Translations under genes and position numbers: made by a program
Source of the DNA: Streptosporangiales bacterium
GTDB lineage: Bacteria; Actinomycetota; Actinomycetes; Streptosporangiales; WHST01
Length of the DNA stretch: 64,000 nucleotides
Direction of reading: 5' to 3'
Assembly: GCA_009379955.1 (NCBI GenBank)
Contig: WHST01000006.1
Location: 3,163-67,162, forward strand
Notes under the pieces: generated by a model
The model's database searches: none
The model's input: only the letters and a program-made list of their open reading frames with translations
Told to the model about the DNA's origin: nothing
In this document: positions 1-27,462 of the stretch, one piece after another
How positions within the stretch are numbered: the first letter of the stretch is position 1
Layout: each line of letters starts with the position of its first letter

Positions 1-1793
1 GCGTACGCGACGACGAGCGGTGGCGATGCGAGGAAGTTCATCTTGCAGTCGGGGTTGATGCGGCCCTCGAAGTTCCGGTTGCCCGACAGCACCGACGCGA
101 CCGCGAGGTCGCCGTCGTTGACCGCCTGGCTGATCTCGTCCTGCAGCGGACCGGAGTTGCCGATGCACGTCGTGCAGCCGTAGCCGACGAGGTTGAAGCC
201 GAGCTTGTCGAGGTACGGCGTGAGGCCCGCACGGTCGTAGTAGTCCATGACGACCTTCGACCCGGGTGCCAGTGTCGTCTTGACCCACGGCTTGCGGGAG
301 AGGCCGTACTCGACGGCCTTCTTCGCGATCAGGGCGGCCGACACCATCACCTGCGGGTTCGAGGTGTTGGTGCACGAGGTGATGGCGGCGATGACCACGG
401 CTCCGTGGTCGAGCTCGAACTCCCCGCCGTCGTCCAGGCGCACCCGCACAGGGTTGCTCGGGCGGCCGTCGGCGGTCGCCGCGGCCGAGACGGTCTCGCG
501 CGGTGCGCCCTTGCCGTTCTCGTGCTCGGCGTGCGCGGTCGGGTCGGACGCGGGGAACGTCTCCTCCACCGCCTCGTCGACCGCGGACTGCGCCGGCCCG
601 TTGGTGACGGAGCCGTCGGTGTAGTCGGTCAGCACGTTGCGGAAGGTCGCCTTCGCGTCGGACAGCGAGATGCGGTCCTGCGGACGCTTCGGGCCGGCGA
701 TGCTCGGCACCACGGAGCCGAGGTCGAGCTCCAGGGTCTCGGAGAACCTGGGTGTGCGGTCGGGCCGGTGCCAGATGCCCTGCTCCTTGGCGTACGCCTC
801 GACGAGGGCGAGCTGCTCGGCGGATCGGCCGGTGAGCCTGAGGTACTCGATGGTCTCCTGGTCGATCGGGAAGATCGCGCAGGTGGAGCCGTACTCGGGG
901 CTCATGTTGCCGATCGTGGCGCGGTTGGCGAGCGGGACGTTGCCGACGCCGGGACCGTAGAACTCCACGAACTTGCCGACCACGCCGTGGCGGCGCAGCA
1001 TCTCGGTGATCGTGAGGACGAGGTCGGTCGCCGTCGCGCCCTCGGGCAGCTCACCGGTGAGCTTGAAGCCGACGACACGCGGGATCAGCATGCTGACCGG
1101 CTGGCCGAGCATCGCGGCCTCGGCCTCGATACCGCCGACACCCCAGCCGAGCACGCCGAGGCCGTTGACCATCGTGGTGTGGGAGTCGGTGCCGACGAGG
1201 GTGTCGGGGTACGCGACGCCGTCGCGCTCGAACACCACGCGGGCGAGGTACTCGATGTTGACCTGGTGCACGATGCCGGTGTTCGGGGGCACGACGCGGA
1301 AGTTGTCGAACGCCTGCTGGCCCCACTTGAGGAACTGGTAGCGCTCCTCGTTGCGCTCGAACTCCAGCGCGATGTTGCGGTCGATCGCGTCGTGCACGCC
1401 GAAGAAGTCGGCGACGACGGAGTGGTCGATCACCAGTTCCACGGGAGCGAGCGGGTTGATCCTGGCCGGGTCGCCGCCGAGCTCGGTCATCGCCTGGCGC
1501 ATGGCCGCCAGGTCGACGATCGCGGGCACTCCGGTGAAGTCCTGCAGCAGCACCCGGGCGGGGGTGTACTGGATCTCGCGACTCGGCGTGCTCGCCGGGT
1601 CCCAGGCGGCGAGCGCCGCGATGTCGTCCGCGGTGACGTTGGCCCCGTCCTCGGTGCGCAGCAGGTTCTCGAGCAGGACCTTGAGGCTGTACGGGAGGTC
1701 GTCCGCCCCCGACACGGCGTCGAGGCGGTAGATCTCGAGGTCGCGCTCACCTACTCGAAGCGTGCTCCGGGCCCCGTAGCTGTTGACCGCCAT
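1..1793 (-). CDS. acnA: aconitate hydratase (aconitase A), N-terminal ~597 codons; 3' end lies beyond the left window edge
   Basis: Absent from the ORF track because it has no stop inside the window. My own minus-strand translation from ATG (complement of 1793-1791) reads [27 protein letters not shown]...[19 protein letters not shown]...[27 protein letters not shown]...[12 protein letters not shown]...[14 protein letters not shown]...[10 protein letters not shown] with no stop down to base 1. These are classic aconitase Fe-S/substrate motifs. Plus-strand ORF 405..1937 is its antisense shadow. Confidence 0.92.
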
Positions 1794-2645: not shown

Positions 2646-3818
2646 TCAGCTCGGCTCCAGCAGGGCGACGCATTCGACGTGGTGGGTCATCGGGAACAGG
2701 TCGAACGCGCGCAGTCCGGTCAGCCGCCAGCCGCGGTCCTGGTAGTACCGCACGTCCCTGGCGAGGGCGGCCGGATCGCAGGCCACGTACGCGACTCGCC
2801 TGGTCTCGATGCGCGCGAGGAGGTCCACCACGGCCCGCCCCGCACCCCGCCGCGGCGGGTCGAGCACGACGAGGTCGGCGCGTCGCAGCCGGAGTCGCCG
2901 CAGCACCTGCTCGACGTCCCCCGCGCGCACCGTCACCGTCGGCACGTCGGCGAGGTTGGCCCGAGCGTCGCGGACGGCGGCACGGCCCGACTCCACCGCG
3001 GTGACCCGGCCGCCGGGTCCGAGGCGTGCCGCGAGAGCGCCGGCGAACAGGCCGACCCCCGCGTACAGGTCGAGCGCGGACTCTCCGTCACGCGGGTCGA
3101 GCGCGGCGAGCACCGCGTCGACGAGGACGTCGGAGGCGCCGGGGTGCACCTGCCAGAAGCCGGTCCCCGTCACCTGCCAGGTACGGCCCGCCGCCTGCTC
3201 GTGCACGAGATCGCGCGGCGCCGGGCCCGGCGTCGGACGGACGACCGACTCCCCCGACGTCGCCGACGCCGCGACCTCGACCTGCCGGACACCCGGCCAC
3301 GAGCGACCCTCGACGCCGAGGGCCTCGACCGCGGGGTGGGCGATGACGCAGCGGTCGACCGGCACCACGTCGTGCGACCGGTGCGCGAGAAAACCGGCGT
3401 GTCCCATGTGGTCGACACCGAACGTCACCCGCGTGCGCCAGCCGAGGCCGTCTGGTGCGCCCGGCACCTCCTCGACCTCGACCGGCAGCTCGACGCCGGC
3501 GAGCCTGCGCAGCTGCTCCTCGACGACCGCGGCCTTGAGCGCGCGCTGCTCGGCGGGCGTCACGTGCTGCCAGTCGCAGCCGCCGCACCGTCGTGCGTAC
3601 GCACACGGCGGCTCGACCCGGTCGGGAGACGCGGCGAGCACCTCGACGCAGTCCGCGCGCAGGAAGGCCTTACGCCGGTCCGTGACCCGCGCCCGGACAC
3701 GTTCCCCGGGCAGCGCGTGCCTGACGAACACGACCATGCCGTCATGCCTGGCGACGCACCAACCGCCGTGCGCGACGGTGTCGACCGCCAGCTCGAGGAC
3801 GTCACCGACCTCACTCAC
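2646..3818 (-). CDS. TRAM-domain class I SAM-dependent RNA (uracil-5) methyltransferase, RumA/RlmD-like
   Basis: 390-aa ORF. It has an N-terminal TRAM-like segment (GDVLELAVDTVAHGGWCVARHDG), a Cys cluster (CAYARRCGGCDWQH), a SAM motif (LDLYAGVGLFAG) and a C-terminal AYVACDPAALARD. The GTG start overlaps the upstream permease stop by 8 nt. Confidence 0.85.
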   Translation of the reverse strand: MSEVGDVLELAVDTVAHGGWCVARHDGMVVFVRHALPGERVRARVTDRRKAFLRADCVEVLAASPDRVEPPCAYARRCGGCDWQHVTPAEQRALKAAVVEEQLRRLAGVELPVEVEEVPGAPDGLGWRTRVTFGVDHMGHAGFLAHRSHDVVPVDRCVIAHPAVEALGVEGRSWPGVRQVEVAASATSGESVVRPTPGPAPRDLVHEQAAGRTWQVTGTGFWQVHPGASDVLVDAVLAALDPRDGESALDLYAGVGLFAGALAARLGPGGRVTAVESGRAAVRDARANLADVPTVTVRAGDVEQVLRRLRLRRADLVVLDPPRRGAGRAVVDLLARIETRRVAYVACDPAALARDVRYYQDRGWRLTGLRAFDLFPMTHHVECVALLEPS

Positions 3819-5859
3819 GGGTGTCCGCAGGATGATGCTCCGTCGCCGCGAGCTCGGCCTCGCGCTCGAGGCGACCGACGATGCGGTGGGACGAGCTGAG
3901 CTGCCACGGCACGTTGGTGACCATGATGCCGGGCTCGAACAGCAGTCGCGCCTTCAGCCGCAGCGCGCTCTGGTTGTGCAGCACCTGCTCCCACCAGTGA
4001 CCCACGACGTACTCGGGCAGGAACACCGTGACGACGTCGCGCGGGCTGGACCGCCTGATCGTCCTGAGGTAGTCGACGAACGGACGCGTCATCTCGCGGT
4101 AGGGGGAGTCGAGCACCTTGAGCCGCACCGGCAGGCCGAGCCGGTCCCACTCCTCCTGCAACCGCCGGGTCTCCTCGGGGTCGACCTGGACCGACACGGC
4201 CTCGAGGACGTCCGGCCGCGTCGCGCGGGCGTACGACACGGCGCGCAGCGCGGGACGGTGGATGCGCGAGACCAGCACGATCGCGTGGACCCGCGAGGGC
4301 AGCGTCGTGTCCTCGTCCTCGTCGGGAGTCAGCTCCGCATTGACCCGCCCGTAGTGCCGTTGGATGCCGCTCATCAGCAGGTACAGCACGAACATCGCGG
4401 CGATCGCGATCCACGCGCCGTGGGTGAACTTGGTGACCAGCACGATCACCAGGACCGTGCCGGTCATGCACAGGCCGAACGCGTTGATCGCCCGCGACCG
4501 CTGCATGCGCCGCCGGACGTCCGGCGACCGTTCGGTGCGTAGCAGCCGGGTCCAGTGCCGCACCATGCCGGTCTGGCTCACCGTGAACGACACGAACACC
4601 CCGACGATGTACAGCTGGATGAGCCGGGTCACCTCGGCGTCGAACGCGACGATCAGGACGATCGCGGCGCCGGCGAGGAGCACGATGCCGTTGCTGAACG
4701 CGAGCCTGTCACCCCTGGTGTGCAGCTGCTTGGGCAGGTATCCGTCGCGCGCCAGGATCGAGCCCAGCACCGGGAACCCGCTGAACGCGGTGTTCGCGGC
4801 GAGGATCAGGATCACGCCCGTGGCGGCGATGAGGAAGTAGAAGCCCGGCGGGAAGTTGTCGAACACGGCATGGCCGAGTTGCCCCATCACGGTGGTCTGG
4901 GTGTAGCCGTCGCCCACCGGCTCTCCGCCGAGCAGCAGTTTGTGTGCGGCGTCTTCGGGGTCCACGTACCGGAGGTTGGTGAGGTTGGCGAGGCCGAGGA
5001 TGCCCATCTCCATCGTGACGGCGATGACACCCATCAGCAGCAGCGTGGTCGCCGCGTTGCGGCTCTTCGGCTTGCGAAAGGCAGGCACACCGTTGCTGAT
5101 CGCCTCGACGCCGGTCAGGGCCGCCGACCCCGACGAGAAGGTGCGCAGGATCAGGAAGACGGCGGCGAGGCCCGTGAAGCCCTCGACGAACCCCGGATCG
5201 GGCGCCACGGTGAACCTGGCGCTCTCGGCCTGCGGCAGGTCACCCAGGAGATACCGGCCGAACCCCCACGCGATCATGCCCATGACCGCGGTGACGAAGA
5301 GGTACGTCGGGACGGCGAACGCCGTTCCCGCCTCCTTGATGCCCCGCAGGTTCATCGCCATGAGCAGCACGACGAGCCCGACGGCCACCCATGTCTCGTG
5401 ACCGCGTATGAACGGCATCGCCGCGGCCGCGTTCTGCACACCGGAGGAGATCGACACCGCGACCGTCAGGACGTAGTCGACCAGCAGCGCACTGGCGACG
5501 ACCTTCCCGAACCGGTTACCGAGGTTCGTCCCCGCGACCTCGTAGTCGCCGCCGCCGCTCGGGTACGCGTGCACGTTCTGCCGGTACGACGCGACGACCG
5601 TGAACATGACGACGACGACCGCGAGGCCGACCTTCCAGGAGTACGAGTAGGCGGTCAGCCCGGCGATCGAGAGCATGATGAAGATCTCGTCCGGGGCGTA
5701 GGCAACCGACGAGAGTGGGTCGCTCGCGAACACCGGAAGTGCGATGCGCTTCGACAGGAGGGTCTCGTGTAGCTGCTCGGAGCGGCGTGGTCGACCGACC
5801 ACCAGCCTCTTCAGGGCATGGACAGCGCTGGGCACAACACCCCAGGCTAGCGGTACCAC
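3811..5859 (-). CDS. APC-superfamily permease with long cytoplasmic C-terminal domain
   Basis: 682-aa ORF with about 12 hydrophobic helices, then a ~230-aa soluble tail. It is divergent from the trkA pair, as is typical in actinobacteria. Confidence 0.8.
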   Translation of the reverse strand: MVPLAWGVVPSAVHALKRLVVGRPRRSEQLHETLLSKRIALPVFASDPLSSVAYAPDEIFIMLSIAGLTAYSYSWKVGLAVVVVMFTVVASYRQNVHAYPSGGGDYEVAGTNLGNRFGKVVASALLVDYVLTVAVSISSGVQNAAAAMPFIRGHETWVAVGLVVLLMAMNLRGIKEAGTAFAVPTYLFVTAVMGMIAWGFGRYLLGDLPQAESARFTVAPDPGFVEGFTGLAAVFLILRTFSSGSAALTGVEAISNGVPAFRKPKSRNAATTLLLMGVIAVTMEMGILGLANLTNLRYVDPEDAAHKLLLGGEPVGDGYTQTTVMGQLGHAVFDNFPPGFYFLIAATGVILILAANTAFSGFPVLGSILARDGYLPKQLHTRGDRLAFSNGIVLLAGAAIVLIVAFDAEVTRLIQLYIVGVFVSFTVSQTGMVRHWTRLLRTERSPDVRRRMQRSRAINAFGLCMTGTVLVIVLVTKFTHGAWIAIAAMFVLYLLMSGIQRHYGRVNAELTPDEDEDTTLPSRVHAIVLVSRIHRPALRAVSYARATRPDVLEAVSVQVDPEETRRLQEEWDRLGLPVRLKVLDSPYREMTRPFVDYLRTIRRSSPRDVVTVFLPEYVVGHWWEQVLHNQSALRLKARLLFEPGIMVTNVPWQLSSSHRIVGRLEREAELAATEHHPADTRE

Positions 5860-17757: not shown

Positions 17758-17959
17758 GTACGCTCACTCCCGGTCACCGTCGATTCGGCCGCCCATGGAG
17801 GCGACACCACCACCTCCCGACACCGGCGTCAGCCGCCGAAGGCAGTCAATACTGTGGCAGTCGCCGACCGACTTCGCGACTCGCCGGGCGTGGTCGTAGC
17901 ACCCGCCTCCCCGTGCGAGGAGACTGCCTGTGTTGTCGACTGCCGCCCGGAGGCCGAGC

Positions 17960-18769
17960 ATGCAGGAATTGCGCCTCGTCGGGATCAGTGACGAGGGCGA
18001 CCACCTGCTCCTCGCCGCTCCCGATGCCACAGGTGCGCATTTCCGTGTGCCACTCGACGGGCGGATCCGCGCCGCCGTCCAGGGCGCGGCGGCGCGTCCC
18101 GGGCAGCTCGAGAAGCAGATGGAGAGCACGGTGCGACCAAAAGAGATCCAGACCCGCATCCGCGCCGGTCAGAGCCCGGAAGAGGTCGCCAGTGCCGCCG
18201 GGCTCCCGCTGGAGCGCATCGAGGCGTTCGCCACCCCGGTGATCAGGGAACGCATGCACATCACCGAGCTCGCGCAGAAGACGGCGGTGCGCCGTCCCGG
18301 CGAGTCGCAGCCCAACGCCGAGCTCGGCGAGCTGGTCCGCCAGCGACTGCAGGCCAGGGGCGTCGACCCCGACGACCTCGACTGGGACTCCTGGCGGCGC
18401 GAGGACGGCACCTGGAAGGTGCGGCTGCAGTACAAGCTCGCCAACCGCAGCGGCGTCGCGGAGTGGATCTACGACGTGTCCGCGCGCCACGTCCGCCCGG
18501 TCGACGACGAGGCCGCGTCCCTGGTGAGCGCCAACGGCACGGTGCGTCCCGAGCCTCCGGTCGAGGAGGTCGTCGAGCGGCCCCGGTTGGCCGCGGTGGG
18601 TGGCGGCGTGGAGCCGGCTTCCTCGATCGTCGAGCCGCAGGAACCCCTCGCCGACGACAACGACACCCAGCCGCTGCGCATCGCCCGCCAACCAGCCAAG
18701 GCCAACAAGCGCGCGTCGGTGCCGTCCTGGGACGAGATCATCTTCGGCACCCGCCGACAGAAGGACTGA
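17960..18769 (+). CDS. sepH: septation protein SepH-like (DUF3071)
   Basis: Internal ATG of ORF 17930..18769. Sequence reads MQELRLVGISDEGDHLLL...TVRPKEIQTRIRAGQSPEEVASAAGLPLERIEAF and ends in a basic C-terminal tail. Confidence 0.75.
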   Translation: MQELRLVGISDEGDHLLLAAPDATGAHFRVPLDGRIRAAVQGAAARPGQLEKQMESTVRPKEIQTRIRAGQSPEEVASAAGLPLERIEAFATPVIRERMHITELAQKTAVRRPGESQPNAELGELVRQRLQARGVDPDDLDWDSWRREDGTWKVRLQYKLANRSGVAEWIYDVSARHVRPVDDEAASLVSANGTVRPEPPVEEVVERPRLAAVGGGVEPASSIVEPQEPLADDNDTQPLRIARQPAKANKRASVPSWDEIIFGTRRQKD

Positions 18770-18775
18770 GGCCGC

Positions 18776-20428
18776 CTAGCGCGTCGGCTCCGCCGGGGTC
18801 GCCTCCTCGGACACGAACGGTGCGAGCCAGCGCGGGGTGACCTCGTGCGCGAACGTGGCGACCGAGTCGGCGTCCATATCGGTCGCCGCGTAGCCGCCGC
18901 TCCCTGCGCCCACGCCGACGACGAGGGTGGCCACCTGTTGCCGCCGCTGGAAGATCGTCTGCCGCACCTGCCAGCCCACGACCGCGCGCCGCTGCAGCAC
19001 CACGGTGCGCCGTGACCACGAGCCGCCGCGGACGCTCACCAGCTCGCCGTCGTACGCGTGACCGAGCGACCGGTACCTGTCCACGCCGAGCGGGATGCCG
19101 AGCAGCGCGAGCGCGAGCAGCGGCACGCCCGCCTCGGGCGCCCCGGTGGCGAACGCGGCGATCGCCAGGACCGTCCACGGCACGATCGCGCGGAACAGCC
19201 GGCGGCGAAGGGCGGCGCGCGGATGGGCGGTCAGCGTCTCCGGCCGCGCGCCGACCGTCGTGACCGCGAGCGCGTAGGCCCGCTCGACGGGGGCGACCGG
19301 CAGCAGCTCGGCGCGCGAGTGGTGCGACTCCGCACCGATCCCGGTGACGAGCGCGCGCAGCCGACCCGCACGCACCATGCGCGCGGGCAGTGCCTCGACG
19401 AGCTCCCACCCGCGCAGCCGCCGCCGTTCCAGCGTGACGTGACGCCGGGTGAGCAGGCCGCGTTCGAGCTCCAGCGCGTCGGGAGTACCGCGAACAGTGA
19501 AGTCCCAGTTGAGCAGGGCGGTCATGGCGACGGACGCGATCGGGAAGCCGAGCACGAGGAACGCGAGCGCCGCGAATCCGACGAGCCAGGGGTCGGCGAC
19601 GAGCCAGGCCGCCGCGCCCTGCACCTGGCGCTGGCCGATGGTGTCGCTCTGCGCCACCCAGCCCCAGATCGTGCCCAGCAGCGCGAGCGGGGCGAACAGG
19701 TAGGCGCCGGTGAGCGGCGACATCAGGAACCAGGATCGCCTGACGCGGGCGAGCACCGTCCGCGGCTGGTCGTCTCGGCCGGGCACCTGCGCGACCTCCG
19801 GTGCCTCGGCGTCCGCCGCGGGCGCGGCGGACCGGCGCGCGAGCAGCAGCCGCCGCAGGCGCGCGCCCTCGGCTGCCGTGACCGCGTCGAGAACGCCTTC
19901 GTCCGCACGCCCCGTGCCGCCCGCGGCGGCGTCGACGCGTACCACGACGAGCCGCATCAGGCGGTGCATCGGCGAGGCCGTCAGGTCGACTCCCCTGATC
20001 CGATCGAGCGGGATCGACCGCGACTTCCTGGCCAGCAGGCCCGAGGTGATGTCGAGCCGGTTGTCGTGCAGGGCGTAGCGGAACGTCGCCCAGCGGATCA
20101 GCGAGTACGCGATGGACAGCAGGCCGCCGGCGAGCCCGTAGTACGCGGCCCGGTCGACGGTGAAGTGCCCGGAGATGACGAACGCCGCGGCCAGCGGCAG
20201 CGCGAACGTGCCGAGCCGCTTGATCGGGTCGACGACGAGGCTCCGCGCGCTCAACCGCTGCACGGTGCCCGGCGCGGCGATGGCAGGCGCCGCCAATGAC
20301 ACGTCGTCGGCTCGGTACTGGTCCGTCACGAGGCGTCCTCCAAAGCGAGCATCGCAGCGGTCCGGAGCACACATCGCGCCCACGCACTCGCCGAGCGAGG
20401 AGCGGAGCGGCGGAGGACGCCGGGGCAC
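18776..20428 (-). CDS. YdbT-like membrane protein with repeated bacterial PH (bPH_2) domains
   Basis: 550-aa ORF. The start is uncertain (GTG 20428, ATG 20374 or GTG 20329). TM hairpins alternate with PH-like segments (SIPLDRIRGVDLTASPMHRLM...). Confidence 0.72.
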   Translation of the reverse strand: MPRRPPPLRSSLGECVGAMCAPDRCDARFGGRLVTDQYRADDVSLAAPAIAAPGTVQRLSARSLVVDPIKRLGTFALPLAAAFVISGHFTVDRAAYYGLAGGLLSIAYSLIRWATFRYALHDNRLDITSGLLARKSRSIPLDRIRGVDLTASPMHRLMRLVVVRVDAAAGGTGRADEGVLDAVTAAEGARLRRLLLARRSAAPAADAEAPEVAQVPGRDDQPRTVLARVRRSWFLMSPLTGAYLFAPLALLGTIWGWVAQSDTIGQRQVQGAAAWLVADPWLVGFAALAFLVLGFPIASVAMTALLNWDFTVRGTPDALELERGLLTRRHVTLERRRLRGWELVEALPARMVRAGRLRALVTGIGAESHHSRAELLPVAPVERAYALAVTTVGARPETLTAHPRAALRRRLFRAIVPWTVLAIAAFATGAPEAGVPLLALALLGIPLGVDRYRSLGHAYDGELVSVRGGSWSRRTVVLQRRAVVGWQVRQTIFQRRQQVATLVVGVGAGSGGYAATDMDADSVATFAHEVTPRWLAPFVSEEATPAEPTR

Positions 20429-20432
20429 ACCG

Positions 20433-20936
20433 TCATGTGGCGTCGTCCTCGAGCAGGTTGGCCTGCTGGGCGAGGTCGAACGAGAGCCGGACGGCGACGT
20501 CGGCGGGCAGCCCGACGATCTGGCTCGACCCGGCGTGCGAGGCGGTCTGCACGACGAGCGTCGCCAGGCCGAACATCCGCTGGAGCACTCCCCGCTGGGT
20601 GTCGACCGACTGGATGCGGCTCACCGGCACCACCCGCCACTCGCGGCTGAGCCATCCGGCCCGGGTGAACACGACGCCTGCGGTCACCTCCCAGCGGTGC
20701 ACGCGGTAGCGCCACACCGGCTCCACCACCACGAAGAGCAGACCGAACAGCCCGAGCGCGATCGGCAGGATCCACCGCCAGCGCGACGCCGCGTCGGGGA
20801 GGAAGTCGGGGTTCCACCACGTGATCAGCAACCCGATCGCGAGCAGGATCGCGAACTGCACGAATCCCTCGACGACCCACTGGTAGACGGCTCGCCGGGA
20901 GACGGTGTGCGCGGGAGCGCGCAGCGGTGCGGACAC
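20433..20936 (-). CDS. YdbS-like membrane protein with single bPH_2 domain
   Basis: 167 aa with 2 TM helices, then RVVPVSRIQSVDTQRGVLQRMFGLATLVV. Confidence 0.78.
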   Translation of the reverse strand: MSAPLRAPAHTVSRRAVYQWVVEGFVQFAILLAIGLLITWWNPDFLPDAASRWRWILPIALGLFGLLFVVVEPVWRYRVHRWEVTAGVVFTRAGWLSREWRVVPVSRIQSVDTQRGVLQRMFGLATLVVQTASHAGSSQIVGLPADVAVRLSFDLAQQANLLEDDAT

Positions 20937-21007
20937 GCTTCGAGCTTAGAGCGTCCGTCCCCACATCCGGCATTCGTCAGTCGTCGGCCGAGCGGGCGTC
21001 CTGGAGC

Positions 21008-21316
21008 GGGGCGCGGTGAGCGGCACCCTCACCGCGCCCCGACACGGTCGGGGTGCCCCTCACGTGTCCGGTCCCGAGAGGCGTCACGGCGCGGCAGTGT
21101 GCCGTGACGGATCGTCGTAGTCGCGGACCGGGGTCAGTCGGCAGGTATCTGAGCCGGGGCTTCGCACTCTGGCCCCGTGACACGGTCATCCCACTGACAC
21201 CGACTGACCGTGTCCGCCGGCCGGGGGTTGGTGTGCACGTGATCGCGCCGAGCGCGAGCGTGTCACAAGGGCCGGCACACGAGGGGCCGTGCCAGCGGGG
21301 GCGCACGGCCCCTCGT
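21008..21316 (+). promoter_or_regulatory. hairpin-dense leader upstream of the S8 protease operon (four perfect inverted repeats)
   Basis: Four hairpins: 21008-21040 (13-bp stem, 7-nt loop), 21082-21109 (9-bp stem), 21179-21214 (10-bp stem) and 21279-21316 (14-bp stem). All lie in the 420-bp divergent gap between the ydbS-like gene and the S8 gene. The four stem sequences are unrelated to each other. Confidence 0.45.
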
Positions 21317-21357
21317 ACCCTTCGGGCCGACGCACCAACGAGGACGGAGACCCCGGC

Positions 21358-22539
21358 ATGAACGCCGAGCACGAGGACAGAGCGAGCCGTATCTGCCGCC
21401 GGCACGACGCGGTGGTGCTCGACGACGTCGGCCAGGCCATGGCGCGCAGCCACGAGATCCTCTGCACCCGCCGGCACGCCGACGTCGTCAGCGACCGGCT
21501 GCGCAAGTGGGTCGACGGCAGCGAGCAGGTCAGAGGCGCCGGTATCGTCAGGGTGCGGCTCCGCAGACGTGCCAAGGTCGACCTCCGCGCCGTCACCGCC
21601 GACCTCGAGCCGTACGCACGCGTCGCGCCGAACAGCCTCTACTCCGGAGAGCCCCTCTGGAACGGCGGTCCTGCCAGCCCGCCGACCCAGCCCGCCCATC
21701 GCCCTCGACCGCCCCGGGCACCGGCACCCGGCACGCGCTCCACCGTCACCGCGGTCCTCGACACCGGCATCTCGGCGCATCCGTGGTTCACCGGGCGCTC
21801 CTGGTTCGCCGACTGCGGCCCGCAGCATGCCGAGGAGGTCGACCGCGACCAGGACTTCCTCCTCGACAGCCAGGCCGGGCACGGCACGTTCGTCACCGGC
21901 CTCCTTCTCACGCAGGGGCCGAGCACCGACATCCGCCCGGTGCGGGTCCTCAACAGTGACGGCGTCTGCGACGAGGCCGCTCTCATCCGCGCCCTGATGG
22001 CGTTGCGTCCCTCCGTGACCGGAGCGACGGACGTCGTGAACCTCTCCCTCGGCGCCTACACGCATGACGACCGCCCGTCGCCACTCCTCCTCGACGCGCT
22101 CCACGCGCTCGGTCCTGACACCGTCGTCGTCGCGGCCGCCGGCAATCGCGGCTCGTCCAGACCGTTCTGGCCTGCGGCCCTCAAGTCGGTCGTCGCGGTC
22201 GGCGCACTGGAGTCGGCCGGCGGTGGGCGCGCGCCGTTCAGCAACCACGGATGGTGGGTCGACGCGTGTGCGCCCGGCCACCAGGTGGCGAGCAGCTTCG
22301 TCTGGTTCAACGGTCCCGGCGGCGGCGGAGACGTGACGGACGCCGACCTGTTCCTCGGGTACGCCCAGTGGAGCGGCACCTCGTTCGCCACGGCACAGGT
22401 GTCGGGCGCGGTCGCGAATCTCTGCGCCACGAAGGGCATGGACGCGCCGCAGGCCACCCGTACGCTGCTGGACCCGGCCAAGCACCGGTTGGTGCCGGAT
22501 CTCGGCCTCGCCGTGCTCGAGCGGCGCCGTGCCCGGTAA
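21358..22539 (+). CDS. S8 (subtilisin-like) serine peptidase, no signal peptide
   Basis: ATG 21358 follows GAGGACGGAGA. The catalytic triad contexts are AVLDTGI (Asp), AGHGTFVTG (His) and WSGTSFATAQVSG (Ser). A ~125-aa N-terminal region and a Pro-rich linker precede the catalytic domain. Confidence 0.85.
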   Translation: MNAEHEDRASRICRRHDAVVLDDVGQAMARSHEILCTRRHADVVSDRLRKWVDGSEQVRGAGIVRVRLRRRAKVDLRAVTADLEPYARVAPNSLYSGEPLWNGGPASPPTQPAHRPRPPRAPAPGTRSTVTAVLDTGISAHPWFTGRSWFADCGPQHAEEVDRDQDFLLDSQAGHGTFVTGLLLTQGPSTDIRPVRVLNSDGVCDEAALIRALMALRPSVTGATDVVNLSLGAYTHDDRPSPLLLDALHALGPDTVVVAAAGNRGSSRPFWPAALKSVVAVGALESAGGGRAPFSNHGWWVDACAPGHQVASSFVWFNGPGGGGDVTDADLFLGYAQWSGTSFATAQVSGAVANLCATKGMDAPQATRTLLDPAKHRLVPDLGLAVLERRRAR

Positions 22540-22572
22540 CCTCACGGATGTCGTCGGTGCATCCGTCTGGAG

Positions 22573-23151
22573 GTGGGCGTGGAGACGGTCCGCACGCACA
22601 CCGAGGAGCCGGACAACGCCACCCTCGTCAAGCGCGCCGCGGAGGGCGACGACGAGGCATGGCATCAGATCGTGCACCGGTTCTCCACCCTGGTCTGGGC
22701 TGTCCCCCGCTCGCAGGGTCTCGGCCGGGTCGACGCCGCGGACGTCTACCAGACCACCTGGCTGCGCCTCGTCGAGCATCTCGGCAGCCTTCGCGAGCCG
22801 GCCGCACTCGCCGGCTGGCTCGCGGCGACCGCACGCAACGAGGCGATCCGCGTGTCGAAGCACAGATCTCGCGAGCAGCCCGCCGAGGGTCACGGCGCCG
22901 ACCTTCCCGCGCCCGACCGCGATACCCCCGAGGTCGCACTGCTCCTCGACGAGGAGCGCCGCCGGGTGCTCCGCGCCTTCGCGCAACTCTCCGAACGTTG
23001 TCAACGCGTCCTCCGGGTCGTTGCCGCCGGTCCGGTGTCGAACTACGACGACGTCGCGGCGGCGCTCGACATGCCGGTCGGCAGCCTGGGCCCGACCCGG
23101 GGGCGTTGCCTGAACCATCTGCGCCAGCTGCTGGAGGGGGATGACAGATGA
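22573..23151 (+). CDS. ECF-type RNA polymerase sigma-70 family factor
   Basis: 192-aa ORF; the start may be the second GTG at 22579. Sigma2 region: AWHQIVHRFSTLVWAV...DVYQTTWLRLVEHL. Sigma4 region: LSERCQRVLRVV...DDVAAALDMPVGSLGPTRGRCLNHLR. Confidence 0.85.
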   Translation: MGVETVRTHTEEPDNATLVKRAAEGDDEAWHQIVHRFSTLVWAVPRSQGLGRVDAADVYQTTWLRLVEHLGSLREPAALAGWLAATARNEAIRVSKHRSREQPAEGHGADLPAPDRDTPEVALLLDEERRRVLRAFAQLSERCQRVLRVVAAGPVSNYDDVAAALDMPVGSLGPTRGRCLNHLRQLLEGDDR

Positions 23152-23600
23152 ACGCAGAGGACGCTGTAGTGACGCGGCTGCGCTCCGCCTTCGGGGCCGC
23201 CGATCCCGTTCCGCACCATGCGCTCGACGCAGCCCTGGCGAGCCTGTCGTGGCGCGACCCGGACAGCGCACTGGCCGAGCTCGTCGGCGACTCCCTCACG
23301 GATCCGGCGGGGGTGCGCAACCGATCCGACACCGGCCCCCGACTGCTGACGTTCGAGGGCGACCACCTGGTCGTCGAGGTCGAGGTGTCCGACCTGGGCG
23401 GCGCGCACCGGCTGCTCGGTCAGCTCGTCCCACCCCAGCCCGCCGAGGTCGAGGTGCGCTGGCGCGGCGGGAGCCTGCGTGCCGCCGCCGATCAGCTCGG
23501 GCGGTTCAGGGCGGCGTCGGTCCCACCGGGGCCGATCAGCATCTCCTGCCGGCTGACTGAGCCGTCGCGGTTGGTGTCGACGAGCTGGGTCACGGTGTAG
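23148..23600 (+). CDS. hypothetical 150-aa soluble protein translationally coupled to the ECF sigma factor
   Basis: An ATGA overlap links it to the sigma stop. It has GC3-rich codon usage, no TM helix and no HxxxCxxC motif. Confidence 0.6.
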   Translation: MNAEDAVVTRLRSAFGAADPVPHHALDAALASLSWRDPDSALAELVGDSLTDPAGVRNRSDTGPRLLTFEGDHLVVEVEVSDLGGAHRLLGQLVPPQPAEVEVRWRGGSLRAAADQLGRFRAASVPPGPISISCRLTEPSRLVSTSWVTV

Positions 23601-23648
23601 GAGAACCCCCTGGACCTCGTCCTCCGAGCCGAGCGGGCGCGCCGAACC

Positions 23649-26216
23649 GTGGCCGTGGACCCGCGACGCGCACGCGACGAAGCCTTCGCGGTCCTGCGGT
23701 CGGCTGACGCCAACGCAGAAGCCCGGGCAGTGGCGTTGCGCGCACTCGGTCTCACCCAGAAACTCGCCGGTGACGCCCGACGGGCCGAACGCACGTTGCG
23801 ACGATCTGTCGCAACCGCCGCGGACGCACGACTGAGGCAACGCGCCGCGGAGGCGAGGCTGAGTCTCGTCGTGGTCCTCGCTGATCGTGGCGAGTTCCGC
23901 GCGGCACTGGCCGAGGCAGACGTGGCGGCGCGCGCCCTGCGCGGAGTCGACCTCGGTTACCTGCACACTCAGCGTGCGCTCGTGCTGAGCCGAGCCGGCC
24001 GCTACGACGAGGCCCTGTCGACATTCGCACGAGCATTGACCCATCTGCAACGGTTCGCCGAACCAGAGTGGATCTGCCGCGTGCTGTCCAATCGGGGCGC
24101 CCTGCTCGGCTACACGGGTGGCTACCGCGCGGCGGAACGTGATCTGCGTCGCACGATCGAACTCGCGGACCGGCACGGGCTCGAAGTCTTCTCCGGCCAG
24201 GCGCGACACAACCTCGGTTTCATCTCGTTGCGGACGGGCGACGTTCCCACCGCACTGCGCCTGTTCGCCGAGGCCGAGCCCTTCTTCCCCGCCCAGGGGC
24301 ACAACCAGGCCGCTCGGCTGCTGGACGTCGCGGACGCCTACCTCTCGGTCCGGCTGTTCCGCGACGCCCGCGAGCACCTCGAGCACGCCGTCGACGTCCT
24401 CGCCGAGGGCGGGTTCGCGGTCGACGTCGCCGAGGCGCAGGTGCTGCTCGCGCGCACCCACCTGCTCGACCACGCCGCCGGTGCGGCGGCGCGGACGGCC
24501 TCCGAGGCGGCGGCGGAGTTCCGGCGACAGCGGCGACCCGGGTGGACCGCTCTCGCCGACCACCTCGCCCTGTACGCCAGGGTCGAGGCGGGCGAGAGCG
24601 GTGGGGAGCTGCTCGGGGACCTGCGGTCCTCGGCGCGCCGGCTCGGCAGGCGGGGCTGGGCGCACGCCGCGGTCCACAGTCACGTCCTCGCCGGGGCGAT
24701 GGCGCACGAGCTCGGCGACCGCCGGGTCGCCCGCGTCGAGCTCGACCACGCGAGCCGGGCCCGCCATCGCGGACCGATCGCCGTCCGCGCGCCCGCCTGG
24801 TACGCGACCGCCCTGCGTCGCCTCGTCGACGCCGACGAACGGGGCGCGCTGCGCGCCGCTCGAGCCGGGCTGGGCGTGGTCGATGACTACGCCGCCACCC
24901 TCGGCGCCACCGACCTGCGGGTCAGGGCGAGCGGATGGGGCGAGGACCTCGCGACCCTCGGCGTCAGGCTCACCAAGGAGTCCGGAGACGGATGGCGCTA
25001 CCTCACATGGGTCGAACGCTGGCGGGCCAATGCGCTTCGCCGCCCCCCGGTCCGGCCGCCGCACGATCCGCGGCTCGCGCGCGACCTCGCCCAGCTGCGC
25101 CGGGTGACGGCCGACCTCGCGACCTGCTCGGCGCGCGGCGACGACACCCGCCCGTTGACGGCGGAGCAGGTGCGACTCGAGCGCGCGGTGCGCGACCGTA
25201 GCCGCGTCGTCACCGGCCCGTCCGGACGCTCGACGGGTGGCGCGCTCGACCGTGCCGAGCTCCGCGAACTGCTGGGCGACCGCGCACTCGTGGAGCTCGC
25301 CGACCACGACGGAACGCTCGTGGCCGTCACCTTCGCCGCCGGTCGGTGCCGGTTGCACGAGCTCGGCCCGTTCGGCGCGGCGGCGACCGAGATGGACTCG
25401 TTGCGGTTCTCGCTCCACCGGCTGGCACGACGCCACGGCTCGGCCGCGAGCCTCGCCGCCGCCGAGGCGGGCGTCGCGTACTCCGGACGACAGCTCGACG
25501 CGATGCTCCTCGCCCCCCTGCGCGAGGCGATCGGTGACCGTGAGCTGGTCATCGCGCCGAGCGACGCGTTGCACGCCCTCCCCTGGTCCGCCCTCCCGTC
25601 GTTGCGCGACACGACGGTGAGCGTGGTGCCGTCGGTGACGATGTGGGTCTCGGCCACCCGGCGCCTACGGTCGCCCTCGCGCGGTCGTGGCGTCGTCGTC
25701 GTGGCGGGTCCGGGCCTCGACCATTCGGCCGCCGAGGTGCGCGCGGTCGCCAGGCACCATCGCGGGGTGCGGCGCCTGACCGGACGCCGGGCGACCGTCG
25801 CCGCCACCCTCGACGCCATCGACGGTGCGTCGACCGTTCACATCGCGGCCCACGGACGCTTCCGCTTCGACAACCCGCAGTTCTCCGCGCTCGACCTCGA
25901 TGATGGGCCACTCACCGTCTACGACCTGGAACGGATCAGCCGCGCCCCGCGACGACTGGTGCTGTCCGCATGTGACACCGCACTCTCCGCAGTGCATCCG
26001 GGAGACGAGCTCCAAGGAGTCGCAGCGGCTTTCCTGTCGTTGGGAACCTCGACCCTCGTCGCGAGTGTCACACCCGTCGCCGACAACGAGACGAGGACAC
26101 TCATGGGCAGCTTCCACCGCCGGCTGGCCGCGGGCGCATCGCCGGGACGCGCACTCGCCGAGGCCGAAACGACCACGGGCACGCTGGGATTCGTCTGTTT
26201 CGGGGCGAGCGAATAG
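23649..26216 (+). CDS. TPR-repeat / CHAT-domain (caspase-fold) peptidase
   Basis: 855 aa. The N-terminal ~560 aa are helical TPR-like repeats (e.g. LSNRGALLGYTGGYRAAERDLRRTIEL, ARHNLGFISLRTGDVPTALRLF). The C-terminal CHAT domain has the His/Cys dyad contexts TVHIAAHGRF and RLVLSACDTA. Confidence 0.85.
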   Translation: MAVDPRRARDEAFAVLRSADANAEARAVALRALGLTQKLAGDARRAERTLRRSVATAADARLRQRAAEARLSLVVVLADRGEFRAALAEADVAARALRGVDLGYLHTQRALVLSRAGRYDEALSTFARALTHLQRFAEPEWICRVLSNRGALLGYTGGYRAAERDLRRTIELADRHGLEVFSGQARHNLGFISLRTGDVPTALRLFAEAEPFFPAQGHNQAARLLDVADAYLSVRLFRDAREHLEHAVDVLAEGGFAVDVAEAQVLLARTHLLDHAAGAAARTASEAAAEFRRQRRPGWTALADHLALYARVEAGESGGELLGDLRSSARRLGRRGWAHAAVHSHVLAGAMAHELGDRRVARVELDHASRARHRGPIAVRAPAWYATALRRLVDADERGALRAARAGLGVVDDYAATLGATDLRVRASGWGEDLATLGVRLTKESGDGWRYLTWVERWRANALRRPPVRPPHDPRLARDLAQLRRVTADLATCSARGDDTRPLTAEQVRLERAVRDRSRVVTGPSGRSTGGALDRAELRELLGDRALVELADHDGTLVAVTFAAGRCRLHELGPFGAAATEMDSLRFSLHRLARRHGSAASLAAAEAGVAYSGRQLDAMLLAPLREAIGDRELVIAPSDALHALPWSALPSLRDTTVSVVPSVTMWVSATRRLRSPSRGRGVVVVAGPGLDHSAAEVRAVARHHRGVRRLTGRRATVAATLDAIDGASTVHIAAHGRFRFDNPQFSALDLDDGPLTVYDLERISRAPRRLVLSACDTALSAVHPGDELQGVAAAFLSLGTSTLVASVTPVADNETRTLMGSFHRRLAAGASPGRALAEAETTTGTLGFVCFGASE

Positions 26217-26360
26217 AAGGCGCCGCGATGACGGCGTCCAGGATCGTCCGGCCGGCGGCCCCTGCCGCCCCGCGAGCGGGTAACATCGGCTCGCCGTTAC
26301 CGGTACTTGACCGGAAGCACCTGATCCGAAAGCATGCGGCGTGGCAGCCGAGGGGAGCAC

Positions 26361-26783
26361 ATGGCCACAATCCGCGAATTGGCACGCGGTTCGCGGCGTC
26401 CCTGGGAGGGCTCGCTGCGGTCGGCCTTGTGGCGCACCGGTGTGCGGATCGGTGTGATGGGCGTCGTCGCTGTGGTCCTGGCCAACATCAACCTTCCGTG
26501 GCGACCGGAGACCCTGTGCGCGCTGCGGCAGTTCACCGGCATCCCGTGTCCTCTGTGTGGCACGACGACGGCTGCCGTCCACGCCGGAAACCTGGACATC
26601 GTCGGGGCGTTGGCGGCCAACCCGGTCACGGTCGTCATCATCGCGCTCCTCGCGACGTCACCGCTCACCGGCGTCGGCCGGTGGTGGGAGACGATGTCGA
26701 ACCGGCCGCGCGTACTACTATGCATCGCCTTGTTCGCAGCGGCCGAGATCTGGCAGCTCTTCAGGTACGGGCTCCTCCCGTAA
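26361..26783 (+). CDS. DUF2752-like membrane protein
   Basis: Part of ORF 26334..26783, starting at MATIREL. The hallmark motif GIPCPLCGTT is present, followed by TM helices. Confidence 0.72.
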   Translation: MATIRELARGSRRPWEGSLRSALWRTGVRIGVMGVVAVVLANINLPWRPETLCALRQFTGIPCPLCGTTTAAVHAGNLDIVGALAANPVTVVIIALLATSPLTGVGRWWETMSNRPRVLLCIALFAAAEIWQLFRYGLLP

Positions 26784-27186: not shown

Positions 27187-27462
27187 ATGAACAACCCCCA
27201 GCCCCTCGCGGGCCGCGGCCATGGACCGGTGCGGCAGGAGAACAACACGCCGCTGATCCTCGGCATCCTCGGCATCGTCGGGTGGTTCGTCTGCGCCGGC
27301 ATCCCCGGGATCGTGCTGGGCCTCGTCGGCCAGTCGAAGGCCCGCGAGCTCGGTCAGTCGGAGACGCTGCCGAGGATCGCGTGGATCGGTGGGCTCGTCG
27401 CGCTGGCTCTCGTCGTCATCGGCACGATCCTGCTGCAGGGCACGCGCCCGGACGGCTCGTAG
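27187..27462 (+). CDS. DUF4190-like small membrane protein (paralogue)
   Basis: 91-aa ORF reading LILGILGIVGWFVCAGIPGIVLGLVG... Confidence 0.7.
   Translation: MNNPQPLAGRGHGPVRQENNTPLILGILGIVGWFVCAGIPGIVLGLVGQSKARELGQSETLPRIAWIGGLVALALVVIGTILLQGTRPDGS

Follow-up and report, generated by a model that had tools for sequence, protein, structure and literature searches.

Csx30 binds CASP-sigma, a sigma factor that it inhibits, and is cleaved within a flexible loop by the TPR-CHAT protease Csx29 (PMC10028731), and in Myxococcus xanthus the N-terminal three-helix bundle of DdvA suffices for sigma2/sigma4 binding (PMC11506125). CalpL cuts CalpT, releasing a CalpT fragment bound to CalpS (cited in 10.1101/2023.06.23.546230). 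For the extracytoplasmic function (ECF) sigma group ECF54, the literature states that there is no anti-sigma factor and lists conserved carboxypeptidase, subtilase and CHAT-domain neighbours (PMC8999054, citing Huang et al. 2015 and Casas-Pastor et al. 2021); it also places ECF54 and ECF58 among the groups without a clear regulator (Casas-Pastor et al. 2021). Here we describe a locus with such a neighbourhood in a stretch of 64,000 nucleotides of Streptosporangiales DNA (contig WHST01000006.1; hereafter the window), in which the gene for an ECF-type sigma factor is followed directly by an open reading frame (ORF) of 150 codons whose product we call X150. We propose, at a probability of about one in two, that X150 is a cytoplasmic regulator dedicated to the ECF sigma factor with which it is co-transcribed, and most likely a soluble anti-sigma factor of a non-canonical kind.

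The locus consists of four co-directional genes on the forward strand, in the order S8 subtilase (21358..22539), ECF-type sigma factor of 192 aa (22573..23151), X150 (23148..23600) and TPR-CHAT protease of 855 aa (23649..26216). The sigma ORF ends in ...GAT GAC AGA TGA, with the TGA at 23149-23151, and the X150 ATG occupies 23148-23150, so that start and stop codons share an exact ATGA overlap at 23148-23151, as a preliminary description of this DNA had read it. A Shine-Dalgarno-like sequence, GGAGGGGG (23133..23140, forward strand), was read 7 nt upstream of the X150 ATG, still inside the end of the sigma gene. The sigma factor itself matches Sigma70_r2 (E 1.8e-8) and, over residues 28-186, the TIGR02937 sigma70-ECF model (E 9.6e-17), and 2998 homologues were found at E<=1e-10. 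Its gene context suggests an ECF54-like factor.

Judged by its sequence relatives, the X150 ORF is a real gene, because it has hundreds of homologues of about the same length that align end to end. A word-indexed search returned 232 homologues, and HMMER against 1.84 billion cluster representatives gave 1913 family proteins at E<=1e-3 and 769 at E<=1e-10; among the 150 HMMER matches listed, nearly all were 140-170 aa long with end-to-end alignment. The identical GenBank entry is the hypothetical protein GEV10_03035 of a Streptosporangiales metagenome-assembled genome (MAG). All named carriers are Actinomycetota, the exception being one MAG labelled Gemmatimonadales, and they span Streptosporangiales, Acidothermales, Acidimicrobiia, Ilumatobacteraceae, Solirubrobacteraceae and Egibacteraceae. 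They include the isolates Carbonactinospora thermoautotrophica, Spongiactinospora sp., Desertimonas flava and Egicoccus halophilus, as well as a Pseudonocardia sp. MAG. When the N-terminal 60 residues alone were used as a profile query, every match was a truncated or frameshifted copy of this family, and no other architecture came up. Many metagenomic copies are truncated or frameshifted with junk C-termini (for example L041 5356-6436 and L053 5355-6642); these are probably indel errors of long-read assemblies, which inflate the apparent number of short 'variants'. Our literature search found no experimental work on the family.

The evidence that ties X150 to the sigma factor comes mainly from related loci, of which 53 were found via X150 relatives and 3 via sigma homologues (56 in total). 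In the first set, 53 of 53 loci have a homologue of the window sigma factor immediately upstream of X150 and co-directional with it. The proteases are placed more freely: a CHAT gene occurs within approximately 6 kb of X150 in 47 of the 53, on either side and either strand, an S8 gene within the same distance in 33, and at least 10 distinct orders and orientations of CHAT and S8 were seen around the constant sigma-X150 pair. A few loci carry the pair with neither CHAT nor S8 within 6 kb, which argues that X150 is tied to the sigma factor and not to the proteases. Start codons in these loci were set heuristically, and on that basis the sigma stop and X150 start overlap by 1-11 nt in 25 of the 46 loci that could be scored. 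The reciprocal search gave the same picture, since all three sigma homologues, picked solely for their long contigs, are each followed directly downstream by an X150-family gene (hmmsearch E 1e-45 to 1e-56), and all three also have CHAT and S8 genes nearby. The two genes are adjacent, co-directional and frequently overlapping, which is the operational criterion for a sigma/anti-sigma gene pair. By its position, coupling and invariance, X150 behaves as the cognate partner of the sigma factor. A mirror-tree comparison points the same way, with X150 divergence following that of sigma (partial r 0.54 for the helices and 0.69 for the sandwich described below) and, once sigma was controlled for, giving values of only -0.20 to 0.06 against CHAT.

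No natural sigma-X150 fusion was present among 120 sigma matches, and the longer of these (216-239 aa) carry N-terminal extensions only. In three sigma homologues of 239 aa (P0327, P0339 and P0374) the extension holds the sequence S-L-V-G-V-R-G, which is similar to the X150 linker motif described below; the related sigma P0380 reads LVDTRWEG and has no such motif. The likeness may be due to chance or to translation of a non-coding upstream region.

The preliminary description had presented X150 as a protein with no transmembrane segment, a single Cys, a C-terminal two-thirds that looked beta-rich and none of the hallmarks of a classical anti-sigma factor; each of these features was borne out, and the translation agrees with the residues given there. 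The peak 19-residue Kyte-Doolittle mean is 0.62, well under transmembrane values, and the sequence scan showed no signal peptide and no transmembrane segment. The sole Cys, C134, lies in the beta-sandwich and the helical region has none; the HxxxCxxC motif of zinc-containing anti-sigma (ZAS) proteins is absent. An AlphaFold2 model from a 37-sequence alignment (mean predicted local distance difference test, pLDDT, of 81.9) divides the protein into three parts. Residues 1-50 (23148..23297) form an acidic three-helix module with a net charge of about -5 and helices at 3-17, 23-33 and 38-49 (pLDDT 58-85). Residues 51-64 (23298..23339) are a flexible linker, with pLDDT below 50 across the loop 51-60. 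Residues 65-150 (23340..23597) form a beta-sandwich whose eight strands, all within 65-144, are predicted at pLDDT 90-97.

Conservation in the family follows the same division, being concentrated in the helices, in the sandwich core and in one short motif within the otherwise variable linker. Near-invariant positions in the helices are D19, P20, P22, A29, W35, R36, D39, L42, A43, L45, D48 and S49, and the sandwich core conserves G91, Q92, P95, D115, G118, F120, G128, T145 and W147. The preliminary description had suggested that an alignment of orthologues might contain a conserved exposed loop, and the linker, which the model predicts with low confidence, holds such a motif: L-A-G-V-R followed by G or S. 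The Arg is kept in 136 of 140 sequences, while 105 of 135 have Val at P2 and 118 of 135 have G or S at P1'. The spacers flanking the motif vary in length, one from 8 to 14 and the other from 6 to 16 residues. The window copy reads A54-G55-V56-R57-N58 (23307-23321), with the R57 codon at 23316-23318. A two-domain build with an exposed, near-invariant Arg motif between the domains fits a protease-gated inhibitor. For the two roles that the preliminary description had suggested, a sigma-binding partner or a protease substrate, the evidence is indirect: the invariant adjacency to sigma, the frequent start/stop overlaps, the linkage to TPR-CHAT and this conserved loop.

Pfam CarboxypepD_reg (PF13620) scored 13.6 bits on the window protein (E 0.086, against a gathering threshold of 32.3 bits) and matched 93 of 140 family members at E<=1, with a best E of 1e-5; the modelled sandwich is compatible with this domain, which it appears to resemble, and has no catalytic residues. 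Neither Pfam nor the fold revealed a peptidase domain, the protein consisting of only the three helices and the 85-residue sandwich. A Foldseek search of the PDB with the model returned only generic immunoglobulin-like, CrdA or superoxide dismutase (SOD)-like sandwiches, and metal- or carbohydrate-binding roles for the domain were judged unlikely. NCBIfam gave no match to the window protein. None of the Pfam and NCBIfam anti-sigma families (zf-HC2, RskA, RseA_N and similar) matched it at E<=1, 0 of 140 diverse family members matched any anti-sigma family in a Pfam scan, and two sequence and profile searches of the PDB found nothing below E 0.5 and no anti-sigma chain at E<=10. Csx30 and Csx31, to which the preliminary description had likened a possible role of X150 without asserting homology, showed no NCBIfam, PADLOC or sequence similarity to it.

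Both proteases of the locus keep their catalytic residues. The TPR-CHAT protein (Pfam CHAT E 4e-40, TPR_12 E 3e-11, with a faint NCBIfam Csx29 match at E 0.0015) has tetratricopeptide repeats over approximately residues 1-560, a CHAT domain at 612-841 and an isoelectric point (pI) of about 10.5, and its catalytic pair is intact, with His735 in HIAAHG and Cys775 in LSACDT. The S8 protein (Pfam Peptidase_S8 E 3e-25) keeps the catalytic Asp (VLDTG), His (GHGT) and Ser (SGTS). Its longest ORF begins at GTG 21289, and homologue alignments start at residue 24 of that ORF, Met24 being ATG 21358, the likely start. Ahead of the catalytic Asp lie a non-catalytic N-terminal region of about 125 aa (21358-21730) and a Pro-rich linker, which could be a pro-domain or a regulatory domain. 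The sequence scan detected a signal peptide or membrane segment in none of the four proteins. We count the intact catalytic residues of both proteases and the cytoplasmic location of all four products in favour of the proposed regulatory role. Two S8 orthologues, in Egicoccus halophilus (L054 1762-3162, reverse strand) and on a Joint Genome Institute contig (L056 1797-3227, reverse strand), carry 7-8 tandem NPGYQG/NPAYQG repeats in the linker before the catalytic domain; precomputed Pfam annotation overlooked these proteins.

Enrichment analysis of upstream regions in the related loci yielded a bipartite promoter-like motif with the family consensus (T/G)GTATCA-N15/16-(C)GCTCT, which is probably the cognate ECF promoter and is put forward as a candidate. 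The window copy, GTATCT-N15-ACTCT, lies upstream of S8 at 21145..21169 on the forward strand, 120 nt 5' of GTG 21289 and 188 nt 5' of ATG 21358. The strict pattern GTATC-N15-17-RCTC was present in 48 of the 56 loci, with 70 matches in 641 kb as against approximately 1.3 expected by chance per 64 kb; the sole other match in the window (1107-1132, reverse strand) is within chance expectation. Of these 70 matches, 46 lie at most 320 nt upstream of, and on the same strand as, S8 (21), sigma (19) or X150 (6), further ones outside the 46 lead into S8 genes truncated at locus ends, and none lies upstream of a CHAT gene. If this is the cognate promoter, the sigma factor would be autoregulated, S8 would be a direct target and CHAT would be expressed independently. 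CHAT genes that are transcribed separately do not carry the motif, which fits CHAT as the upstream sensor.

In six loci the motif falls within the sigma gene itself, at the 3' end and 50-110 nt ahead of X150 (L009 5918-5942, L011 4488-4512, L020 5917-5942, L022 5915-5939, L054 6545-6569 and L056 6544-6568), where its GTATCA part also encodes a conserved G-I-T; these copies could serve as an internal X150 promoter or could merely reflect what the gene encodes. Between motif and S8, some loci have small ORFs of 59-71 aa (L003 5837-6019, L008 approximately 3815-3997, L001 5655-5870 and L055 4530-4709). They were rejected as a component of the module, being conserved only among close relatives (two Acidothermaceae loci) and having no counterpart in the window.

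Taken by analogy with Csx29/Csx30, these results are best read as a soluble anti-sigma factor that would be bound to its sigma factor and cleaved by TPR-CHAT. The genes for sigma and X150 overlap or lie close together, and the two proteins are produced jointly. The acidic three-helix module would keep the sigma factor inactive, and the beta-sandwich would be a docking handle for one or both proteases. On a cytoplasmic signal, TPR-CHAT would cut the linker after the near-invariant Arg, at L-A-G-V-R followed by G/S (R57 in the window). The freed sigma factor would then transcribe from GTATCA-N15-GCTCT, raising its own operon and inducing S8, which in turn would be an output or a feedback protease. 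Among non-caspase clan CD peptidases, a group that includes metacaspases, orthocaspases, separase and gingipain R, the most common specificity is for Arg at P1.

Several observations weigh against this proposal. Neither sequence nor profile searches relate X150 to an anti-sigma domain, and its N-terminal module is short, at about 50 aa, with no zinc ligands. Published classifications give ECF54 no anti-sigma factor and propose direct proteolytic control (PMC8999054), and Csx29 cuts after Met or Leu, not after Arg (PMC10028731). S8 is missing near 20 of the 53 loci. The mirror-tree signal could be explained by shared linkage history alone, and it is stronger for the beta-sandwich than for the helices. 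Finally, the four genes of the window may form one operon, and the suggestion that CHAT is outside sigma control rests on other loci.

The published idea for ECF54 needs no anti-sigma factor: the sigma factor itself would be degraded or matured by CHAT, by S8 or by both, and X150 would be a protease adaptor, exosite decoy or inhibitor, as PCi is for PCaspase. There is a precedent in PCaspase, which cleaves PCc-sigma directly and is damped by the small inhibitor PCi (10.1101/2023.06.23.546230), the N-terminus of X150, being acidic (charge of about -5), could associate with TPR-CHAT, which is very basic (pI 10.5), and CarboxypepD_reg domains are non-catalytic accessory domains. Against this reading, X150 adjoins sigma in 53 of 53 loci while the placement of CHAT varies, the pair sometimes stands with no protease nearby, and with sigma controlled for, the divergence of X150 shows no relation to that of CHAT. 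Nor did we note a conserved exposed motif in the sigma factor, for which no systematic search was made. We consider direct proteolysis of the sigma factor unlikely.

Strict co-occurrence and translational coupling fit any obligate partner, including one that helps. X150 could be a stabilizing chaperone or co-activator of the sigma factor, after the manner of RsoA-SigO or PorX-SigP, with the proteases ending the response by destroying it; SigP indeed depends on PorX for stability. The window sigma, however, has region 2 and a region 4 equivalent (TIGR02937 residues 28-186), so nothing suggests a missing function for a partner to supply, and by precedent a protease-cleavable linker fits release of inhibition better (PMC10028731). 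A positive partner thus seems decidedly unlikely to us. The least probable of the readings considered here is that X150 is a mere output of the sigma regulon, a cytoplasmic ligand-, metal- or glycan-binding sandwich with no regulatory role. The best Foldseek matches, to copper-binding CrdA and SOD-like sandwiches (E 6e-4), and weak profile matches to carbohydrate-binding modules speak for such a function. But His at position 105 and Cys at position 134 are kept in only 79 and 92 of the 140 family members, respectively, and the family has no conserved His/Cys/Met cluster; X150 is also cytoplasmic, with no signal peptide, and the conserved helices, the linker motif and the invariant position behind sigma would all be left unexplained. 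Inhibition of the sigma factor by X150, relieved by cleavage, remains the reading that we prefer.

The surroundings of the locus are those of core-genome DNA. The 12 kb inspected around it contain housekeeping and DUF families only, with no CRISPR genes or genes of cyclic oligonucleotide-based antiphage signalling systems (CBASS): DUF3071, two bPH_2 proteins, DUF2752, DUF4190, a rhodanese, Phosphodiest and DUF5998. Several of these families recur beside the module in Carbonactinospora and on an Acidothermaceae contig, and the module lies within conserved core-genome synteny. PADLOC gave no match for X150 or sigma. We rejected a defence-island reading, given this lack of PADLOC matches and the syntenic core genes on the flanks. 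The 4Fe-4S neighbour that Casas-Pastor et al. mention for ECF54 was not found near the window locus.

Directly upstream of the module lie DUF3071 (17930-18769, forward strand) and the bPH_2 pair (18776-20428 and 20433-20936, both reverse strand), and DUF3071 is likewise upstream of the module in the Carbonactinospora locus (L001). Two small membrane proteins are encoded just 3' of the CHAT gene (26334-26783 and 27187-27462, both forward strand), one matching DUF2752 and one weakly DUF4190; the DUF2752 protein has a CxxC-type motif. Long ORFs of 764, 843 and 297 aa run antisense or in other frames (20977-23271 and 23043-25574 on the reverse strand, 22251-23144 on the forward strand). Such ORFs are typical of high-GC DNA, and we saw no coding evidence for them, no homologue search having been made. 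A scan of 20900-26500 for sigma-70 promoters and terminators gave nothing informative.

The features reported here provide handles for testing the proposal, namely the candidate site R57, the catalytic His735 and Cys775, and the candidate promoter GTATCA-N15-GCTCT. ECF54 and its sister group ECF58 are among the few ECF sigma groups with no recognised regulator. Should X150 prove to be the inhibitor and TPR-CHAT the protease that cuts it, the regulatory gap of a widespread actinobacterial sigma group would be closed, and the caspase-like control that sigma factors are under, linked until now to defence islands of the CRISPR and CBASS kinds, would turn out to have a housekeeping counterpart in core genomes. 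A compact, wholly cytoplasmic, protease-gated transcription switch would also become available.

Compared with the described systems, the locus shares parts with each. With the class I anti-sigma factors (ZAS/RsrA, RseA-N and RskA), X150 shares a gene directly 3' of sigma, translational coupling and a helical N-terminus; in contrast to them it has no HxxxCxxC motif, fourth helix or membrane anchor, and 0 of 140 members match their profiles. DdvA/DdvS combines anti-sigma function with a TPR-CHAT architecture and a short N-terminal three-helix part, to which the module of X150, if it is inhibitory, would correspond. In DdvA, however, a single protein spans the membrane, its zinc site is of the CHCC type and its CHAT site is periplasmic and incomplete, whereas in the window the helices lack zinc ligands, all components are cytoplasmic and CHAT is a separate protein with intact His and Cys. 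In the CalpL/CalpT/CalpS and SAVED-CHAT/PCaspase/PCc-sigma systems, a soluble protein associated with sigma is cut by a protease, or two proteases act in a cascade whose last target is a sigma factor; the window also encodes two proteases. They differ in being driven by cyclic oligoadenylates via SAVED; no SAVED or CARF domain is present at the window locus, which also lacks CRISPR and CBASS genes.

The ECF54 neighbourhood of the literature is matched closely: the window has an actinobacterial ECF sigma factor, its neighbours are of the CarboxypepD_reg, subtilase and CHAT types, and a canonical anti-sigma factor is absent. The difference is that the 'carboxypeptidase' neighbour is regarded there as a proteolytic enzyme, whereas X150 is a non-catalytic protein of 150 aa. 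That neighbour is evidently X150, which bears the label because of its weak CarboxypepD_reg match. The gene context is therefore not new, the ECF54 neighbourhood having been published; X150 was mislabelled and its role overlooked.

The type III-E Craspase, finally, likewise encodes together a TPR-CHAT protein, an ECF-type sigma factor and a soluble two-domain protein. Unlike it, the window has no CRISPR effector and no Csx31, and X150, at 150 aa, shows no similarity to Csx30, which has about 565. The site cut by Csx29 follows Met or Leu and the candidate site in X150 follows Arg, and the window locus lies in core-genome synteny, flanked by DUF3071, rhodanese and DUF5998, not in a defence island. 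We offer a fuller proposal, a tentative one that falls somewhat short of even odds. Among soluble anti-sigma factors, X150 would stand for a new structural class, built from a zinc-free three-helix module, a cleavable linker (L-A-G-V-R followed by G) and a CarboxypepD_reg-like handle, and gated by a stand-alone, caspase-like TPR-CHAT protease. It would be an Actinomycetota-wide, CRISPR-independent, core-genome counterpart of the Craspase switch of Csx29, Csx30 and sigma, with a sigma-induced cytoplasmic subtilase as its output or amplifier.

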